From IMG/VR virus record IMGVR_UViG_2671180437_000020: 7,449 bases of DNA; one strand, given 5' to 3'. Position numbers and translations under genes: made by a program. Under the pieces are notes generated by a model. That model had not been told where the DNA came from and made no database searches. It saw only the letters and a list, made by a program, of their open reading frames with translations. Source of the stretch: a virus (lineage: Duplodnaviria > Heunggongvirae > Uroviricota > Caudoviricetes). Numbering within the stretch: the first letter of the stretch is position 1; each line of letters starts with the position of its first letter. Below, in pieces: positions 272 to 7,449 of this stretch.

Positions 272-451
272 CATAATCCCAATGATTACTCCCTGACAGG
301 ATTTGCAGGCCACTCAATATCAGGTGCAGTTGATGTATCAACACGATTCAACAATACCCGATATTTATTCCATGCCTCCAGCAACGATCTTTCTTCCTCC
401 GTTGCGATTTCCAGATCTACAGCATCCTGCAGTGGCGCAATATACTCACTG
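238..451. repeat. direct repeat copy 1 (tfa 3' end plus hairpin), diverged copy of 1288..1500
   Basis: By-eye alignment of 238..451 with 1288..1500 gives roughly 85-90% identity, ending at ...ctcactg in both. The encoded C-termini match (…[41 protein letters not shown]…VRE). Confidence 0.7.
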
Positions 452-555
452 AATTCCTGGATGTAGAACTGTGTGGTGACGGTCTTCCAGCCATTCGGCT
501 CCTGCTGTATCGAAGCATACCAGGCTATTTCAATATCGCTATGCTGCGGCAGCAT
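286..555 (-). CDS. tail fiber assembly (Tfa)-like C-terminal domain protein, 89 aa; possibly a remnant
   Basis: The C-terminal ~55 aa are near-identical to the C-terminus of the 194-aa Tfa at 1335..1919, while the N-terminal 34 aa are unrelated. The ATG at 555..553 is preceded on the minus strand by AAGGGG with a 4-nt spacer. Stop is TAA at 288..286. Confidence 0.4.
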
Positions 556-611: not shown

Positions 612-1280
612 ATGGTGAAATTAATGAAAAAAAACACAGATGATGGGGCTAAAATTTACACACCACTTACCCTAAAGCTTTATGACTGGTGGGTTTTGGG
701 AGTATCAAATTGGCTTGCATGGGGATGTCCTACAAAGGAACACCTTCTTCCACACTTTCTGGAACATTTAGGTAACAACCATCTGGATATTGGTGTTGGA
801 ACTGGGTTTTACCTTACTCACGTACCTGAGAGTAGTCTGATATCTTTAATGGATTTGAACGAAGCTAGCCTGAACGCGGCATCTACAAGGGCTGGGGAAT
901 CAAAAATTAAACATAAAATTAGCCATGATGTTTTTGAACCTTATCCCGCGGCGTTACATGGTCAATTTGATTCCATTTCCATGTTTTACCTTCTTCACTG
1001 CCTGCCTGGAAATATAACTACAAAAAGCTGTGTAATACGCAATGCGGCGCAGGCCTTAACTGACGATGGAACTCTATACGGAGCCACAATTCTTGGCGAT
1101 GGAGTTGTGCACAATAGCTTCGGTCAAAAACTGATGCGCATTTACAATCAGAAAGGTATCTTTTCAAACACAAAAGATTCCGAAGAAGGCTTAACACATA
1201 TACTCTCAGAGCATTTCGAGAATGTTAAAACCAAGGTTCAAGGTACTGTAGTAATGTTTTCCGCTTCAGGGAAAAAATAG
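612..1280 (+). CDS. class I (Rossmann-fold) SAM-dependent methyltransferase, substrate unknown; 222 aa from ATG 612, or 218 aa from ATG 624
   Basis: Motif I LDIGVGTG is encoded at 783..806. An acidic residue ends the next strand (SLISLMDLNE), followed by HDVFEP and FDSISMFYLLHCLP motifs and LTDDGTLYGATIL, in the usual class I order. The pre-motif segment YDWWVLGVSNWLAWG loosely resembles the UbiE/COQ5-type N-terminal region. GGTGA at 614..618 favours the ATG at 624. The gene is visibly AT-rich compared with its flanks. Confidence 0.65.
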   Translation: MVKLMKKNTDDGAKIYTPLTLKLYDWWVLGVSNWLAWGCPTKEHLLPHFLEHLGNNHLDIGVGTGFYLTHVPESSLISLMDLNEASLNAASTRAGESKIKHKISHDVFEPYPAALHGQFDSISMFYLLHCLPGNITTKSCVIRNAAQALTDDGTLYGATILGDGVVHNSFGQKLMRIYNQKGIFSNTKDSEEGLTHILSEHFENVKTKVQGTVVMFSASGKK

Positions 1281-1287
1281 CATCCAA

Positions 1288-1320
1288 CCGCAGCACGTTC
1301 TTGCTTAAGACGTGCTGCGG
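1288..1320 (-). terminator. perfect 11-bp GC-rich hairpin between the convergent tfa and methyltransferase genes; candidate bidirectional terminator
   Basis: ccgcagcacgt (1288..1298) pairs perfectly with acgtgctgcgg (1310..1320) around an 11-nt loop. It lies 14 nt past the tfa stop and 8 nt past the methyltransferase stop. On the minus strand the U-run (UUGGAUGCUAUUUUUU) is not immediately adjacent to the stem. Confidence 0.4.
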
Positions 1321-1500
1321 CATAATCCCAATGATTACTCCCTGACAGAGTTCGTAGGCCACTCAATATCAGGTGCAGTTGATGTATCAACACGGTTCAG
1401 CAACACCCGATACTTTTTCCAGGCTTCCAGCAATGAGGTTTCTTCCTCCGTTGCAATTTCCAGATCTGCAGCATCCTGAAGCGGCGCAATATGCTCACTG
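1288..1500. repeat. direct repeat copy 2 (tfa 3' end plus hairpin)
   Basis: Matches 238..451; see copy 1. Confidence 0.7.
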
Positions 1501-1919
1501 GCTACCTGCATCAGGTTGTTTTTTGTTTCTTCCGCCTCCCGGATCCGGAACAGTTTTTCTGCTTCCGTATCCTTCACCCAGGCTGTGCCGTTCCACTTCT
1601 GAAACTCCCCTTCCGGAGATAACCAGGTGACATTTTCCGGTAACGGACCGAGTTCAGAAATAAATAACGCGTCCCCTGATGCCACGTCATAAACTGTTTT
1701 ACCCCGATGGTCTTCAACAAGATACCACGATGCATCATCACTGTTGAAAACAGCCACGAAGCCAGCCGGAATATCTGGCGGTGCAATATCGGTACTGTTT
1801 GCTGGCAGACCTGTATGAGGCGGAATATATGCGTCACCTTCACCAATAAATTCATTAGTTCCGGCCAGCAGATTATAAATTTTTATGGTCCGTGCTTGTT
1901 CACTCATTCTGAATGCCAT
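1335..1919 (-). CDS. tfa: tail fiber assembly protein Tfa (lambda Tfa/orf-194 family), 194 aa
   Basis: At 194 aa it is the same length as lambda Tfa and near-identical along its length to that sequence as I recall it ([53 protein letters not shown]...). Its ATG at 1919..1917 overlaps the upstream stf-fragment stop (TAATG). Stop is TAA at 1337..1335. Confidence 0.9.
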
Positions 1920-2902
1920 TATGCAAGCCTCACAATATAGTTAAATGCGATGTTTTTGACGGTGTTTTCCGCGTTACCAGCAGCGTTAACGGTGATGGTG
2001 TGTCCATGTGAACCAATCGCAACCGAGTGCGTATGCGCACCAATACCTACAGTATGTGCGTGTGCACCTGCGCTTGCAGCAGTACCCGATACAGAGTGCG
2101 TATGAGCGCCTGCAGAAGAAGTGTTAACACTGTATTTAGAATAATCAGGTGCTCCACTTCCCGGAGCACCACTGGAACCACCTGAAACAAATGTCATCGA
2201 ATGGGTATGTGCACCGGCTGAAGCAGCCGTACCGCTAACACTATGGGTATGCGCCCCGGTGTTATTCGTGGATTTAGTGCCGTAATCAAACGACGATGTG
2301 GTTTTCGTACCCAAATCCGTACTGGATGCGCTGGCGCTGTGGGTGTGCGATTTAATGCCGTCCTGTTCCTGAGACAATACGGCACGACCACTGGCGGGCT
2401 TGCCCTTAATCGTCCAGCCACGCATATCAGGGATCACGCCTGACGGATAAGCCACTGCAAGTTTCGGGTATGCAGATTTGTCAAAAGTCTGCCCCTGCAT
2501 CAGGGCATAACCAGACGGAACGGTATCTGATGGCCACGGGATTGGTGCACCAACAGGGTAGCTTTCTGGTGGAATATTTTTCGAGGTATAAACTTCTGCC
2601 CAGTCTTCCTCAAAACCATAGCCATCTCTTGAAGAACGGTAGAACAGACCACCATTTCTGTAATGCGCCTTCATCTGCAGGGTCCGGCAACTTCCGACTC
2701 CGGTATAGAAGTTAACCAGAATATAGCTGTCGCCAGAGCGAGTGACATTGTAAGCGCCTGATTCGGCATTCCAGGGAACGCCCCCATCCGCATCGGCATA
2801 CGTATCCGTTGCTCTTCTGGCAAAAGCAGCAACATGCGCAGCGGTTAAAGTGATATCAGTAGAACCATCAAACGAAACACCAGATATTTTTATTGCTGTC
2901 TG
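1919..2902 (-). pseudogene. stf: 3' fragment of a side tail fiber gene (about the last 327 codons), cut at its 5' end by IS1
   Basis: The frame is open from the IS1 junction at 2902 to TAA at 1921..1919. It encodes the His-rich tip (GAHTHS/GAHAHT/GSHGH) and ends ...[22 protein letters not shown], which matches the lambda Stf C-terminus as I recall it. There is no start codon or RBS of its own at the 5' end, and the first Met is at 2674. Confidence 0.8.
2153..2902. repeat. direct repeat copy A of the stf 3' segment (750 bp), flanking IS1
   Basis: Aligns with 3672..4421 at a constant offset of 1519. I count about 13 mismatches by eye (~98% identity), all within 2411..2750. Confidence 0.85.
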
Positions 2903-2957
2903 GGTGATGCTGCCAACTTACTGATTTAGTGTATGATGGTGTTTTTGAGGTGCTCCA

Positions 2958-3233
2958 GTGGCTTCTGTTTCTATCAGCTGTCCCTCCTGTTCAGCTACTG
3001 ACGGGGTGGTGCGTAACGGCAAAAGCACCGCCGGACATCAGCGCTATCTCTGCTCTCACTGCCGTAAAACATGGCAACTGCAGTTCACTTACACCGCTTC
3101 TCAACCCGGTACGCACCAGAAAATCATTGATATGGCCATGAATGGCGTTGGATGCCGGGCAACAGCCCGCATTATGGGCGTTGGCCTCAACACGATTTTA
3201 CGTCACTTAAAAAACTCAGGCCGCAGTCGGTAA
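2958..3233 (+). CDS. insA: IS1 InsA (transposition regulator / N-terminal part of the InsAB' transposase), 91 aa, GTG start
   Basis: [40 protein letters not shown]... is the InsA sequence. The A6C frameshift motif (ttaaaaaactc) near 3205..3215 precedes the insB frame. Confidence 0.9.
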
Positions 3234-3655
3234 CCTCGCGCATACAGCCGGGCAGTGACGTCATCGTCTGCGCGGAAATGGACGAACAGTGGGGCTATGT
3301 CGGGGCTAAATCGTGCCAGCGCTGGCTGTTTTACGCGTATGACAGGCTCCGGAAGACGGTTGTTGCGCACGTATTCGGTGAACGCACGATGGCGACGCTG
3401 GGGCGTCTTATGAGCCTGCTGTCACCCTTTGACGTGGTGATATGGATGACGGATGGCTGGCCGCTGTATGAATCCCGCCTGAAGGGAAAGCTGCACGTAA
3501 TCAGCAAGCGATATACGCAGCGAATTGAGCGGCATAACCTGAATCTGAGGCAGCACCTGGCACGGCTGGGACGGAAGTCGCTGTCGTTCTCAAAATCGGT
3601 GGAGCTGCATGACAAAGTCATCGGGCATTATCTGAACATAAAACACTATCAATAA
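3152..3655 (+). CDS. insB: IS1 InsB (transposase catalytic part, expressed as InsAB' by -1 frameshift), 167-aa frame
   Basis: [25 protein letters not shown]...HYLNIKHYQ matches InsB. It differs from the K-12 IS1 InsB I recall at two positions (AKSCQRW and YDRLRK). Confidence 0.9.
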
Positions 3656-3665
3656 GTTGGAGTCA

Positions 3666-6600
3666 TTACCATCCACTTCCCGGAGCACCACTGGAACCAC
3701 CTGAAACAAATGTCATCGAATGGGTATGTGCACCGGCTGAAGCAGCCGTACCGCTAACACTATGGGTATGCGCCCCGGTGTTATTCGTGGATTTAGTGCC
3801 GTAATCAAACGACGATGTGGTTTTCGTACCCAAATCCGTACTGGATGCGCTGGCGCTGTGGGTGTGCGATTTAATGCCGTCCTGTTCCTGAGACAATACG
3901 GCACGACCACTGGCGGGCTTGCCCTTAATCATCCAGCCACGCATATCAGGGATCACGCCTGACGGATAAGCAGCTGCAAGTTTCGGGTAAGCAGATTTGT
4001 CAAAAGTCTGCCCCTGCATCAGGGCATAACCAGACGGAACGGTATCTGATGGCCACGGGATTGGTGCGCCGACTGGGTAGCTTTCTGGTGGAAGATTTTT
4101 CGAGGTATAAACTTCTGCCCAGTCTTCCTCAAAACCATAACCGTCTCTTGAAGAACGGTAGAACAGACCACCATTTCTGTAATGCGCCTTCATCTGCAAG
4201 GTCCGGCAACTTCCGACTCCGGTATAGAAGTTAACCAGAATATAGCTGTCGCCAGAGCGGGTGACATTATAAGCGCCTGATTCGGCATTCCAGGGAACGC
4301 CCCCATCCGCATCGGCATACGTATCCGTTGCTCTTCTGGCAAAAGCAGCAACATGCGCAGCGGTTAAAGTGATATCAGTAGAACCATCAAACGAAACACC
4401 AGATATTTTTATTGCTGTCTGAAGTTTCGTAGCTGTATCAGAATTTCCCTTAATCCCCTTAGGCGAATTAAGTGGTGTATTGATCGTCACTTCACCTGTT
4501 GCGTTATTTACAGCAAATGGTCGAAGACCGTTCCAGCCACCGTACTGGTCGCCTTTATCAGTCATGAGCAAGTAAGTATTTGCTCCATCATTTCGCCATA
4601 TGACACCGTAATCGCCTGCAATCATCCTTAACGCGTTCTGACTACGGACAATAACTTCATCATTAGCGTAAATCTTATTCCCGCTAATATCTGACTTACT
4701 CAAAACAGGATACGAACTATAAAATCCATTACCTTGTTTAAAATCTAAAATTAAATTTACAGCAACTGATTCAGAATAAGGATCAGTTGCACCAAATTTA
4801 TAAGTTGTTTCAGCAACAACATAATCAGAAGCAGGTGCAGTAACGGAGAGTCCTTCTTCTAAAAAAACCTCTACGGGAAATGCCCCACCTTCTATATAGA
4901 ATACGCTGTCTACGGTATCGCCTTTATTACTCATCAGAATGGAATGAATAGCGCGTTCCGATGATGAATAAGCCCAGAACATACCACAGGCATAGCTACC
5001 CCGGTCCGTCCAGCCGCCTGCGCAAACAAAACCATTAAACTCACAGTTATTCATTCTGTGATTAGCTGTGCGACTTGGCGTTGAAATGACAACGCGGGAT
5101 GCCCGATGGCTGTCATTCCTTTTTATCACTAACGGATAATATTTACCTTCCTGGACACCCGCCGGGGCATTTACCACAACGTATCGCATCCCCTTTTTCT
5201 GATCCACTTCACCTTTGCTGTAAACATTAATGTTACTCAGGAAGCGGTCCTTGTCGGGAATATCAGCACCGTTCTGGTCTTTCTGCAGACGTTTCTCTGC
5301 ATTGTCATAGGCTGCTTTTACTGCCTTTGGCGTTGCCGCCAGCGTTTCAGACGTGCTGTTGGTCGCACTGCTGAGCTGTACTACCCCCTTTTTCGTCGTG
5401 CTCGCATCCTCAAGCGCCACGGCGGATGCAATATCCTCTGCACGTTTTGCCGCTGTCTCAGCGCGCGTTGCCGCGGATTCCGCCGTACTTTTGCTCTGTG
5501 CTGCCGCCGTCGCACTGCCAGCTGCCTCTGTCGCCTTCGTGGATGCTGTCGTGGCGCTGCCCTTCGCTGCTGACGCCTGTCTGGTCGCCTCATCTTTTGA
5601 AGCAGACGCCGATGATGCCGATGACGCCGCCGAACTGGCTGACGATGCGGCAGCCGTTTTTGAGGATTCTGCACGGGTTTCCGACGCTTTCGCGTTCGTT
5701 TCGGATGTCTTCGCTGCGGAAGCTGACCTCGCTGCTGCGCTGGCCTGTTCAGTGGCTTCGCCAGCCTTCGTTGTGGCTGTTGAAGCAGACGATGCGGCAC
5801 TTTCTGCCGACTTTCCGGCAGCGGTGGCACTGGCTGAGGCCTGCCCGGCACTTGTTGATGCGGCACTGGCAGATGATGCAGCCGCTGTTTTTGAGCCTGC
5901 CGCAGCTGAGGCACTCTGTCCCGCTGCCGTTTCAGAAGACCTGGCGTTCGTCTCGGACGTTTTTGCCGCCTTCGCGGAATTTCCTGCCGCCGTTGCCGAG
6001 GAAGCGGCACTACTGGCGCTTGATGATGCGTTCGTTTCTGATGATTTCGCTGCCTCTTTTGAGGCCGCCGCATCCCGGGCTGAGGTGGCAGCTTCTGACG
6101 CCTTTGTGGTCGCTGCGGATGCAGAAGTGGCTGCAGATTTTTGTGACGCTGCCGCATTCGTTTCTGACGTTTTCGCCGCACCGGCACTGGTAGCTGCCGC
6201 GCTTTTTGAGGACTCTGCAGCGGCAGCACTTTTTGAGGCTTCAGTGGCCTTTGTTGATGCCGTTCCTGCGCTGGAAGACGCTGACTGAGCCGACGTCGCG
6301 GCCTGCCCGGCTGATGTGCTGGCTGCGCGTGCTGAGCCTGCAGCATCAGTCGCATGGGTTGCCGCCTCACGGGCTGATGTGCTGGCATCACTGGCTGACT
6401 TCTTCGCGGCTGCCGTGTTCTGTGCCACCGCGGACGCGTTACGCGCCACCTCTTCCACCATCAGTTCAAAACGGCGCAGTGCCTCAGGACGGGCATCATC
6501 CTCCGTCATGGCACCGAGAAAATCATTCAGCGTACCGGGTCGGGAATCTTCATACACGGTGATGGTCCCGGCATGTGACGGCGGGAATCCCTCCACCAAC

Positions 6601-6785
6601 AGAATAACGCTGTACTGCCCGTACTCAACGTCCATGCTGTAACGCCCGGCTTCATCCGGATTTTCTGAGGCCAGCGTGTTCACCACCACCGTGGTGCTGT
6701 TACGTTTTGCTTTCAGCTGGATTGTGCAGTTCTGTACCGGTTTTCCTGTGCCGTCTTTCAGTACACCTGAAATCTTTACTGCCAT
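3666..6785 (-). CDS. stf: side tail fiber protein Stf (lambda Stf family), about 1039 aa, C-terminally truncated by IS1; likely non-functional
   Basis: N-terminus [26 protein letters not shown]... matches the lambda Stf N-terminal domain. The ATG at 6785..6783 is preferred over the GTG at 6791 and is preceded by GGGGTGA. The frame runs into IS1 and ends ...GSGW-TAA (3668..3666), with the W and stop supplied by the IS1 terminus. About 76 C-terminal residues present in the 1919..2902 fragment are missing. Confidence 0.85.
3672..4421. repeat. direct repeat copy B of the stf 3' segment (750 bp), flanking IS1
   Basis: See copy A at 2153..2902. Confidence 0.85.
5418..6431. repeat. imperfect tandem repeats inside stf encoding an Ala/Ser/Thr-rich low-complexity shaft
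   Basis: Residues ~121-458 are almost entirely A/S/T/K/E, with recurring AAKTSETNA-type units. Corresponding DNA units recur at roughly 5693, 5941, 6029 and 6146. This GC-rich repetitive stretch produces long spurious ORFs in other frames. Confidence 0.6.
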
Positions 6786-6794
6786 ATTCACCCC

Positions 6795-6823
6795 ACAAAA
6801 AAGCCCGCCTGAACCGGCGGGCT
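6795..6823 (-). terminator. intrinsic terminator between lom and stf (minus strand)
   Basis: AGCCCGCC (6802..6809) pairs with GGCGGGCT (6816..6823) around a 6-nt loop. On the minus strand it is followed immediately by UUUUUU (6800..6795), then the stf RBS and start. Confidence 0.7.
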
Positions 6824-6849
6824 GTCATAACACTGTGTTACCTGGCTAA

Positions 6850-7449
6850 TCAGAATTTATAACCGACACCCACGATGAAACCGTCAGTGCGCCAGTCACC
6901 ACTGCCGGAGCCTTCATAAGCAATATCAATGGACACGGATTCGGTCGGGTTAAACTGCACGCCAGCCCCCCACGCCAGAGACGTGTTGCTGTGGCGACCG
7001 TCATCACTTCCGGTCAGCACATCGTGCTTTTTCCCCTTGTTGTCAGTTACGCGAAGATAATCCCCGGAGAAAGTCGACACACGGCTGTAAGCTACACCCG
7101 CCATCGCATACGCGCTGAACCATTCATTCACGCGCACAGACGGCCCCGCCATTACGCTGAACCAGCGGTTACGAACGGAATCTTCATGCCAGCGGGTATC
7201 GCTGTAACGGGTCAGCTGGCGATTCTTGTCTCCTGCATAGCTGAATGACGTCACCAGCCCCAGTGTGTCCGTAAACTCATAACGGTATTTCATGTTAATC
7301 CCGTTCAGATCATCACTGCCGGGGACGTTCGTCGAGGCATGAAGATACCCCGCGCTCAGCGTGGACTGATGTTCAGACGCCCATGCAGGCGCACCGGATA
7401 CGGCCAGACAAATGGCTGCGGACAAAATTGCTGCACAAACTTTACGCAT
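6850..7449 (-). CDS. lom: Lom outer membrane beta-barrel protein (Ail/Lom/OmpX/PagC family), 199 aa, apparently intact
   Basis: Signal-peptide-like N-terminus MRKVCAAILSAAICLAVSGAPAWA. The C-terminus ...DIAYEGSGSGDWRTDGFIVGVGYKF matches lambda Lom as I recall it. The start codon is the last 3 nt of the window, so the RBS is outside it. Stop is TGA at 6852..6850. Confidence 0.9.
   Translation of the reverse strand: MRKVCAAILSAAICLAVSGAPAWASEHQSTLSAGYLHASTNVPGSDDLNGINMKYRYEFTDTLGLVTSFSYAGDKNRQLTRYSDTRWHEDSVRNRWFSVMAGPSVRVNEWFSAYAMAGVAYSRVSTFSGDYLRVTDNKGKKHDVLTGSDDGRHSNTSLAWGAGVQFNPTESVSIDIAYEGSGSGDWRTDGFIVGVGYKF

Follow-up and report, generated by a model that had tools for sequence, protein, structure and literature searches.

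The window, the whole 7,449-nt stretch of phage DNA analysed here, corresponds over 7449 bp to draft contig CYCU01000062.1, the sole difference being at position 3671. It carries lom, a side tail fibre gene (stf) that is interrupted by an IS1, and the tail fibre assembly gene tfa (Table 1), and the coordinates of the original prediction are correct within it. In a lambda-type late operon lom precedes stf, and in sister loci J, I, K, L, M and H lie further upstream. The window carries no prophage sequence upstream of lom, so the state of the remaining prophage cannot be judged from it.

Table 1. Features of the window
Feature	Coordinates	Strand	Remarks
tfa 3′ remnant, 89 aa	286..555	-	PF02413, E 6e-25; direct repeats D2 and D4; context only
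Cargo class I SAM-dependent methyltransferase, 222 aa	612..1280	+	between tfa and tfa 3′ remnant; context only
tfa, tail fibre assembly chaperone, 194 aa	1335..1919	-	PF02413 (Caudo_TAP), E 1.6e-43
Tip-only segment	1919..2151	-	last 76-77 codons, 4 HxH motifs, ...NYIVRLA; native allele; absent from long ORF
stf 3′ fragment, 327 codons	1919..2902	-	open from IS1 junction; Collar, gp37_C and Phage_fiber domains
Left repeat copy	2153..2902	-	foreign allele 2
IS1 (IS1A/IS1B-like), 768 bp	2903-3670	+	transposase reads opposite to stf and tfa
insA	2958-3233	+	PF03811 and PF12759 (zinc ribbon + HTH)
insB′	3152-3655	+	PF03400 (DDE_Tnp_IS1); overlaps insA
A6C -1 frameshift motif AAAAAAC	3209-3215		in IS1
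Long stf ORF	3666..6785	-	1039 codons from ATG 6785, 1041 from GTG 6791; PF08400 at 1-134, PF21446 at 655-758, Collar at 906-953
Right repeat copy	3672..4421	-	native allele 1 except allele-2 bases at 3899 and 3903
lom, Ail/Lom outer-membrane protein, 199 aa	6850..7449	-	PF06316, E 7e-122

The features of a lambda-type Stf (a PF08400 N-terminus, a long shaft, a collar with a gp37-type HxH tip, and a place after J-lom) are all present, but only when the long ORF and the 3′ fragment are taken together, neither having the complete set alone. The long ORF consists of residues 1-1038 of the intact 1115-aa Stf, one junction codon whose first letter is base 3671, and a TAA (3668-3666) that lies 3-5 nt inside IS1, the product thus ending ...GSGW. 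Comparison with the full gene (3348 nt, 1115 aa) carried by sister genomes and phages bears out the claim that the C-terminus is missing: 76 of the 1115 residues are absent, including four of the seven HxH motifs and the terminal ...NYIVRLA. These residues are encoded only on 2902..1919, as had been proposed, where the end of the fragment overlaps the tfa start (1919-1921) in a TAATG at 1919-1923, an stf-stop/tfa-start overlap which the fragment has and the long ORF has not. The layout as drawn allows no full-length Stf, and tip and tfa are physically apart from the stf body.

Residues 112-327 of the fragment are a gp37-type receptor-binding tip, aligning to residues 26-242 of the T4 gp37 tip structure 2XGF (E 3e-90) with seven HxH motifs. 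As in T4, where gp38 serves, the tip goes with a Tfa-type chaperone but, unlike gp37, its carrier is a lambda-type Stf whose N-terminus is PF08400; in the window the break in the chain falls at about position 164 of the 242-residue construct. The frame of the fragment meets a stop five codons inside IS1, and its first start codon, ATG 2674, is without a Shine-Dalgarno sequence; the 251-aa product from there is predicted to lack the PF08400 tail-attachment domain. Tfa, whose protein matches the Mu assembly protein U (5YVQ), keeps its own GAGG Shine-Dalgarno sequence 8 nt upstream.

That the interrupting element is a member of the IS1 family is seen from its length, its canonical imperfect terminal inverted repeats (GGTGATGCTGCCAACTTACTGAT / GGTAATGACTCCAACTTATTGAT), its insA/insB′ pair and its frameshift site, and annotated IS1A/IS1B copies match it at 98.6-99.5% identity. 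Transcription reading out of IS1 had been suggested as a means of expressing the tip fragment and Tfa, a suggestion with which the orientation disagrees: both the transposase genes and the IRL promoter (2910-2937, + strand) face away from the fragment. Promoter-like matches are at chance level (4 found, 4.0 expected). Transcripts of the fragment could arise by only two routes, the late stf transcript reading antisense across IS1, or a weak fusion promoter whose -35 (TTGGCA, 2916-2911) points outward from IS1 and whose -10, lying in the flank, is poor.

That -35 in the IRL would be one ground for regarding the supposedly promoterless tip and chaperone as a programmed or selected cassette, kept as a second receptor-binding module that IS1 expresses or recombination swaps in, after the manner of the invertible cassettes of Mu, P1 and e14. 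Another would be three residue differences (I/L, V/A, T/M) in the collar/needle region between the products of the two repeat copies described below. Such an arrangement is scarcely credible, given that IS1's own promoter faces away, that no usable translation start precedes ATG 2674, that the copies are direct with neither inverted repeats nor an invertase in the window, and that the layout occurs only in draft assemblies of a single clonal group, none of the 5,426 complete genomes having it. An invertible tail-fibre cassette proper, as with Mu Gin, P1 Cin, e14 Pin or Qin PinQ, was rejected, the window having no inverted repeat pairs and no recombinase ORF. Invertases do adjoin related modules at two other loci (L007, L022).

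The simple picture of an stf cut by IS1 holds as to the break as drawn, but it omitted that the stf 3′ region is present as a 750-bp direct repeat on both sides of the IS1, that the left copy is of a foreign allele, and that an N stands at one junction. The repeats are 98.3% identical, with 13 mismatches, all within 2412-2750, and 750 of the 984 nt of the 3′ fragment are accordingly a second copy of the long ORF's own 3′ end. Against the intact sisters the left copy differs at 16 sites, counting 2152, 2380 and 2384, while 2058-3006 is identical (0 mismatches) to a bio-locus prophage remnant in another draft genome (L006) and 99.9% identical to a Qin-locus fragment (L003). The two alleles share identical blocks of 152, 259 and 94 bp. 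In the right copy the allele-2 bases 3899 and 3903 stand only 28 bp from a native-specific base, 3931. Deletion of 1519 bp restores exactly the 1115-codon stf.

No 6-12 bp match between the IS1 flanks, of the kind expected of a target-site duplication, was found, whereas in three controls (EA13, UTME-14 and PSS-07) a 9-bp duplication accompanies each simple IS1 insertion. Simple (conservative) insertion is ruled out by this lack and by the 750-bp tandem repeat that removal of IS1 would leave behind. An IS-centred tandem duplication by unequal sister exchange was likewise rejected, the left copy matching a different natural allele at every one of the 13-14 differing sites.

Site A denotes the left IS1 junction (2902/2903) and site B the right one, after native codon 1038. 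Base 3671, where IS1 IRR meets stf, reads ‘A’ in the window and ‘N’ in CYCU01000062.1, where the rest of the 15,571-bp locus is free of non-ACGT characters; with an N there in the public contig, the right-hand junction is not sequence-resolved. The junction k-mer as drawn is ...GTTGGAGTCATTACC-A-TCCACTTCCCGGAGC, the native S2-A-S1 join being ...AATCAGGTG-A-TCCACTTCC. Searches of 5,426 complete E. coli genomes, GTDB species representatives, IMG/VR and JGI metagenomes turned up neither IS1 junction. No recorded gene product equals the truncated Stf, and the complete genomes searched have no IS1-centred stf tandem duplication.

Six sister assemblies have an intact 1115-aa stf at the same trp-side locus with 0-3 SNPs in 4.7 kb of flank, and the stf side of the window (3671-7449) has 99.95% identity to the intact sister genes. 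The sole change relative to the six is an inserted block comprising IS1 and 751 bp of the foreign allele, the end of which is within 94 bp of where the other contig part stops. Junction A is seen independently in two draft contigs. In L006, IS1 joined at site A to the allele-2 block runs on into a different tip/tfa and the bio locus. (The draft genome with this bio/att-lambda stf remnant is of the same accession series as the window's contig.) The other is a sister contig, L018, with an identical 4.7-kb flank, which joins the allele-2 block to the native S1-A-S2 adjacency and has A at 2152 where the window contig has C. Both break 104 bp inside IS1, which implies that IS1 is multi-copy in the sister genomes. 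Since S2-A-S1 reads are impossible if IS1 occupies site B, at least one of the two sister contigs is presumably chimeric.

Directly seen are the repeat, the missing target duplication, the distribution of the two alleles, the N, an unbroken stf in the sisters and a second setting for junction A. All this is best explained, with a probability of about one half, by a scaffolding or gap-filling chimera of a short-read draft, the order body, IS1, second copy and tip then not being that of a contiguous chromosome. The original prediction had named an uninterrupted stf and an assembly artefact as what would overturn it, and this is a live possibility in view of the junction N, the sisters' intact stf and the foreign left allele. 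We infer the assembler's behaviour, and a second stf locus in this particular genome, along the following lines. The true state would be a trp-side lambda-type prophage with a native allele-1 stf, like its near-identical sisters, together with a second stf remnant of allele 2 truncated by IS1 at site A, as at the bio/att-lambda locus of the other draft. The assembler would have threaded an IS1 stub with the allele-2 copy onto the native tip-tfa-trp contig, and the scaffolder would have set the native lom-stf contig in front. Gap filling may then have run from one edge through IS1 to its terminus, and from the other as far as the A/C polymorphism at site B, halting there and leaving one N.

In favour of a chimera, the N is exactly at the IS1 IRR/stf junction, the 9-bp duplication of the complete-genome insertions EA13, UTME-14 and PSS-07 is lacking, and both junctions are absent from the genome and metagenome collections named above; the intact stf in six sisters, the discordance of L018 and the allele-2 block in a second context (L006) also point that way. 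Authors of a widely used draft-assembly pipeline describe SSPACE and GapFiller as greedy, with false joins possible, mark joins with N, and work from 300-500-bp fragments, too short to span a 768-bp IS1 (PMC5320598); that the window's assembly came from that pipeline is our assumption. Repeat-induced false joins in scaffolded, gap-filled Illumina drafts share with the window a join across a multi-copy IS, an N mark and an apparent tandem duplication of near-identical paralogous sequence; for this record such a join is the likeliest reading, short of proof.

Against a chimera, the contig stands in the public record, one further assembly has a gene neighbourhood similar to the window's, and scaffolder joins need read-pair support. 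A true repeat-flanked junction would also leave a single N, because the shared 259-bp block is separated from IS1 by exactly one unique base. The allele-2 patch at 3899/3903 is more easily produced by real gene conversion between adjacent repeats, which it resembles, than as a de Bruijn-graph artefact, and IS1 insertions and rearrangements in stf/tfa are demonstrably common in complete genomes. These last two points also favour a real IS1-mediated recombinant of two IS1-broken stf copies in one cell, a possible but rather unlikely origin. The native stf would have been hit by IS1 at site B and the allele-2 stf of a second prophage at site A, 750 bp apart with A upstream and both IS1 in the same orientation; recombination or gene conversion, crossing over once within IS1 and once in the 94 bp of identity just past B, would then have placed IS1 and A..B of allele 2 in the native gene. 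Recombination between IS copies should leave just such an IS1, lacking a target duplication and lying between direct repeats that are not identical; a review notes that direct repeats are missing around IS copies which stem from rearrangements of this kind (PMC9330008). The independent existence of junction A, the exact regeneration of the 1115-codon gene by a 1519-bp deletion and the readiness of lambda-family phages to recombine in stf-tfa (PMC3945230) are in keeping with this. However, three events are required (IS1 inserting twice, then a double crossover), junction B is N in the record and absent from everything else searched, no complete genome has such a duplication, and the native A at 2152 in the clonal sister L018 is incompatible unless there was a further event.

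A quite improbable variant is that both junctions are real and come from two different IS1 copies or a larger rearrangement, the assembler having collapsed the two IS1 copies into one. An inversion or deletion, IS1-mediated or between prophages, that brought the trp-side prophage together with the bio-side remnant would be an example. The multi-copy state of IS1 in the sisters, the location of the N at junction B, and the deletion-linked IS1 without target duplication in stf of two E. coli genomes, MB50 and HNSQ2209, would agree with it. Yet both halves are native to the same prophage in the sisters, making adjacency the simplest reading, and there is no direct evidence for junction B. If it were true, stf would really be broken, with its halves not 768 bp apart.

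Whether routine IS1 rearrangement or assembly artefact, the layout is ordinary either way. IS1 disruption of an accessory prophage tail-fibre gene is commonplace, the same module being hit repeatedly in finished E. coli genomes. PSS-07, EA13 and UTME-14, all complete, likewise have IS1 in the lom-stf-tfa module, the first within the final ~21 codons of stf and the other two in tfa; in PSS-07, as in the window, the stf ORF ends inside IS1 with a short tip remnant and tfaQ beyond. They differ in having the 9-bp duplication, no duplicated stf segment and finished assemblies. MB50 (DLP12 site) and HNSQ2209 (Qin site) resemble the window also in the stf 3′ fragment and tfa left behind the IS1 IRL, but MB50 has lost most of its prophage and HNSQ2209 about 200 bp, where the window has gained a 750-bp repeat.

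The further claim that a broken stf suggests a defective or domesticated prophage does not follow, as side tail fibres are dispensable in lambda. Hendrix and Duda (1992) reportedly showed that lambda PaPa has an stf frameshift relative to Ur-lambda and is still viable. This laboratory strain grows normally with the frameshift, and inactivation of stf/tfa reportedly even improves plaque growth (PMC3945230). The parallel is an accessory stf inactivated near its 3′ part, with tfa intact and the phage viable (PMC3945230); the difference is that PaPa has a 1-bp frameshift and no IS, the gene being split into two ORFs without duplication.

The methodological lesson is that, where an IS in a draft contig lacks a target duplication, its flanking repeats carry different alleles and an N stands at the junction, the assembly is to be checked first. 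The biological weight is small. If the chimera is true, tip and chaperone are not uncoupled in this prophage at all. If instead the recombinant is true, the long-ORF Stf would be without half of its gp37-type needle and unable to form the receptor-binding tip, Tfa would be made from its own Shine-Dalgarno sequence only with antisense late read-through of IS1, and RecA or Red recombination between the 750-bp repeats would delete IS1 and one copy, restoring an in-frame 3348-nt stf. That the arrangement is both real and a reversible switch, IS1 and one 750-bp copy being lost by RecA in the lysogen or Red on induction, is very doubtful; the restored 1115-aa Stf would then have the collar/needle of allele 1, allele 2 or a chimera according to the crossover point, and a lysogen population would release a minority of phage with slightly different side-fibre tips. 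A real structure would illustrate on a small scale how paralogous prophage genes and IS copies recombine, and how an IS knock-out can be reverted precisely through homologous recombination.

Every phage gene of the window lies on the minus strand, and the transposase of the IS1 element reads opposite to the side tail fibre gene, stf, and the gene for its assembly chaperone, tfa. Window 1-300 matches some relatives only (ETEC strains and phage 204576), whose annotation for it is a DUF4376-domain protein; the window's 93-aa ORF there gives no significant match in a Pfam search, and the stretch is probably a relic close to the boundary of prophage and chromosome. In one comparison locus, L001, a 45-aa antisense ORF across the tfa/methyltransferase junction (6916-7053, about window 1225-1362) is named 'nucleocapsid protein' in RefSeq, a label that is almost certainly spurious. 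The stf gene is mosaic in composition (window 4430-5100 versus 5400-6600), the Ala/Ser-rich shaft having a GC content of 0.59-0.62 with strong AT skew (about -0.38) and the Gp34_trimer module one of 0.38-0.45, which suggests horizontal exchange of the middle domain.

Features of the window, with the sequence at the right-hand IS1 junction
Feature	Coordinates	Strand	Remarks
lom	7449..6850	-	PF06316, E 7e-122
long stf ORF	ATG 6785 to 3666	-	PF08400 residues 1-134, Ala/Ser-rich shaft, Gp34_trimer domain, Collar domain
IS1	2903-3670, 768 bp	transposase genes +	complete: canonical ends, insA, insB', A6C frameshift site
stf 3' fragment	2902..1919	-	stop overlaps tfa start (TAATG)
tfa	1919..1335	-	PF02413, E 1.6e-43
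SAM methyltransferase	612-1280	+	left of tfa
tfa 3' remnant	555..286	(-)	left of SAM methyltransferase
junction B			IS1 IRR into stf site B: ...GTTGGAGTCATTACC[N]TCCACTTCCCGGAGC
native site B			uninterrupted stf: ...ATAATCAGGTGATCCACTTCCCGG

The coordinates of the original prediction are correct: the long stf ORF ends ...GSGW at a TAA (3668-3666) within IS1, and the overlap of fragment stop and tfa start is as it described. Its estimate of the loss also stands, comparison with intact relatives (3348 nt, 1115 aa) leaving 76 residues absent, and these, with four of the seven HxH motifs and the ...NYIVRLA end, are encoded at 2151..1919 only. Carriers of the intact gene include E. coli ET474 and WY517-2, the plaque-forming phage PhiR30_1 and six sister assemblies. 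Residues 112-327 of the fragment resemble the crystal structure of the receptor-binding tip of T4 gp37 (2XGF, E 3e-90), with the break point about two thirds along this gp37-type tip and, going by the known gp37 fold, the truncated chain would be unable to finish the intertwined needle. The essential adsorption protein is the central fibre J and not Stf. That the prophage is defective, as had been proposed, gains no support from the stf break, given that lambda PaPa is fully viable with a stf frameshift, and inactivation of stf/tfa reportedly improves plaque growth (PMC3945230). The window includes nothing upstream of lom; tail operons are complete in some sister genomes and IS-truncated in others.

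IS1 is flanked by a direct repeat of 750 bp, the left copy (2153-2902) and the right copy (3672-4421) differing by 13 mismatches, all between 2412 and 2750 (3931-4269 in the right copy), so that the 'tip fragment' mostly repeats the 3' end of the long ORF itself. No target-site duplication was found in the flanks, unlike the clean 9-bp duplication in each of three finished genomes with IS1 in stf or tfa (EA13, UTME-14 and PSS-07), and the window IS1 is therefore not a simple insertion; the deletion-linked IS1 copies of MB50 and HNSQ2209 also have no duplication. A 9-bp-stem hairpin, GGTGCTCCGGGAAGTGGAGCACC, lies at 2148-2170, precisely at site B, with a cut copy at 3672-3689, the right repeat copy terminating within its 3' arm. 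This may be coincidence or may bear on why an assembly edge or IS1 end sits there.

An exact-protein look-up leads to draft contig CYCU01000062.1 (GCA_001283545.1), identical over all 7449 bases except 3671, whose prophage adjoins yciE/F/G and the trp operon. Comparison loci L011-L013 and L015-L017 share this flank, with 0-3 SNPs in 4.7 kb, and carry an intact 1115-aa stf there. Relative to these intact sisters, the right copy and all sequence rightwards are native except for bases 3899 and 3903; in the left copy 16 sites from 2152 to 2750 are different, and the window is native again from 2057 leftwards. At each of the 16 sites the foreign base is precisely that of a second allele, carried by a prophage remnant at the bio locus (L006, CYGS01000045.1) on a contig that begins 104 bp inside IS1 with an identical junction A (IS1 IRL to stf fragment, 2902/2903). 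There it is followed by a different tfa (193 aa, its product 95% identical to the window Tfa), a Mn-catalase cluster and the bio operon; Qin-site fragments (L003, L007) also carry it. The net change from the intact sisters is thus a single block, 'IS1 + 751 bp of allele 2', at site B. The native allele and allele 2 are perfectly identical over blocks of 152, 259 and 94 bp, sufficient length to confuse a k-mer assembler.

At a probability of roughly 0.5-0.55, the window layout is an assembly chimera. The public record has an N, its sole one in 15.6 kb, for base 3671, which separates IS1 IRR from the right copy. This leaves junction B without support from contiguous sequence; the 'A' of the window is probably a placeholder, as no recorded gene product equals the truncated Stf (exact-product look-up with the 1039- and 1041-aa versions). 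In the widely used draft pipeline which, from the accession series, is assumed to have made this assembly, scaffolding and gap filling are by its authors' account greedy and liable to false joins, N marks joins and fragments of 300-500 bp are too short to span IS1 (PMC5320598). Also in favour of a chimera, 400-bp junction BLAST against 5,426 complete E. coli genomes gave neither junction, only two-piece matches at other IS1 positions, whose insertion sites on inspection differ from the window's. Exact scans of GTDB species representatives, IMG/VR and JGI metagenomes, for B also with N{0,12}, again returned neither, one of them being weak evidence as its pattern held the doubtful 'A'. In a further sister, L018 (CYFE01000060.1), the 4.7-kb flank is identical to the window's and the contig breaks 104 bp inside IS1, showing that IS1 is multi-copy in the clone. 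Its allele-2 block is joined to a native A at 2152, a position at which the window reads C. Since IS1 at site B would preclude reads running from the tip through that A into the repeat, either the L018 or the window contig would be chimeric, or an extra event would be needed. A Lom look-up for the lom-stf contig of the sister assembly broken in IS1 yielded long contigs only, and a literature search with the assembly accession had no match.

Against a chimera, a scaffolder join requires read-pair links, the gene neighbourhood recurs in similar form in one more assembly, and a true junction between two repeats would likewise leave exactly one unresolved base. In addition, the allele-2 bases 3899 and 3903 of the right copy, 28 bp from a native-specific base, resemble real gene conversion between neighbouring repeats. 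A genuine IS1 x IS1 recombinant seems less likely. It would have IS1 entering two stf paralogues, at sites A and B, with crossovers in IS1 and in the 94-bp identical block past B then transferring 'IS1 + A..B' to the native gene; no direct repeats flank IS copies that arise by such recombination (PMC9330008). A different real rearrangement involving IS1, which the assembler would have collapsed, is improbable.

Were the arrangement real, the Stf made from the long ORF would have no tip, and any 251-aa product of the fragment would be without the tail-attachment domain. The fragment frame meets a stop five codons within IS1 and its first start codon, ATG 2674, has no Shine-Dalgarno; tfa retains GAGG 8 nt upstream. 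Transcription reading out of IS1 had been suggested to express both, but the element's own promoter (2910-2937, plus strand) points away from the fragment, and a promoter and terminator scan of 1200-4500 gave counts equal to shuffle expectation. The fragment and tfa could be transcribed by one of two routes: late-operon read-through, antisense across IS1, which is plausible under Q antitermination, or a weak putative fusion promoter with TTGGCA at 2916-2911 and a poor -10, a kind of promoter that IS1 is known to generate (PMC9330008). As computed from the sequence, recombination of one 750-bp repeat with the other would delete 1519 bp and restore an exact in-frame 3348-nt stf. An invertase-type fibre switch was rejected, since the window has neither inverted repeats nor a recombinase and its two copies are direct.

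The methyltransferase gene is bracketed, at 236-462 and 1286-1511, by two direct repeats (86-88% identical) that comprise the 3' end of tfa and a GC-rich hairpin (AACCGCAGCACGT...ACGTGCTGCGG); it looks like cargo acquired through a duplication of the tfa terminus. The lom-stf-tfa-MTase-tfa' layout is shared by prophages at the DLP12/appY-ompT and trp sites and by phage PhiR30_1. In four prfC/dinI-site prophages with identical Lom and 1115-aa Stf (L019, L021, L025, L027; about 15040-16670), the cargo slot directly behind tfa instead contains a 534-542-aa reverse-transcriptase + TIR protein (PF00078 + PF01582/PF13676), and in locus L026 a GIY-YIG protein together with a restriction-modification system of EcoRII type, so that it looks like a defence-cargo hotspot.

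Finished E. coli genomes have IS1 at at least five different stf-tfa positions (HNSQ2209, MB50, L029-L031), sometimes with a large prophage deletion (MB50) or a second IS (IS5 in HNSQ2209); an apparent orientation bias of IS1 relative to stf was rejected as a selection artefact of BLAST-piece joining. The closest known parallels are the insertions of IS1 and the deletions mediated by it that finished genomes show in this module, the stf lesion of lambda PaPa, and false joins induced by repeats in draft assemblies. Real or artefact, the finding is of a well-known kind that opens no new question, and tail-fibre modules look like frequent IS1 targets.
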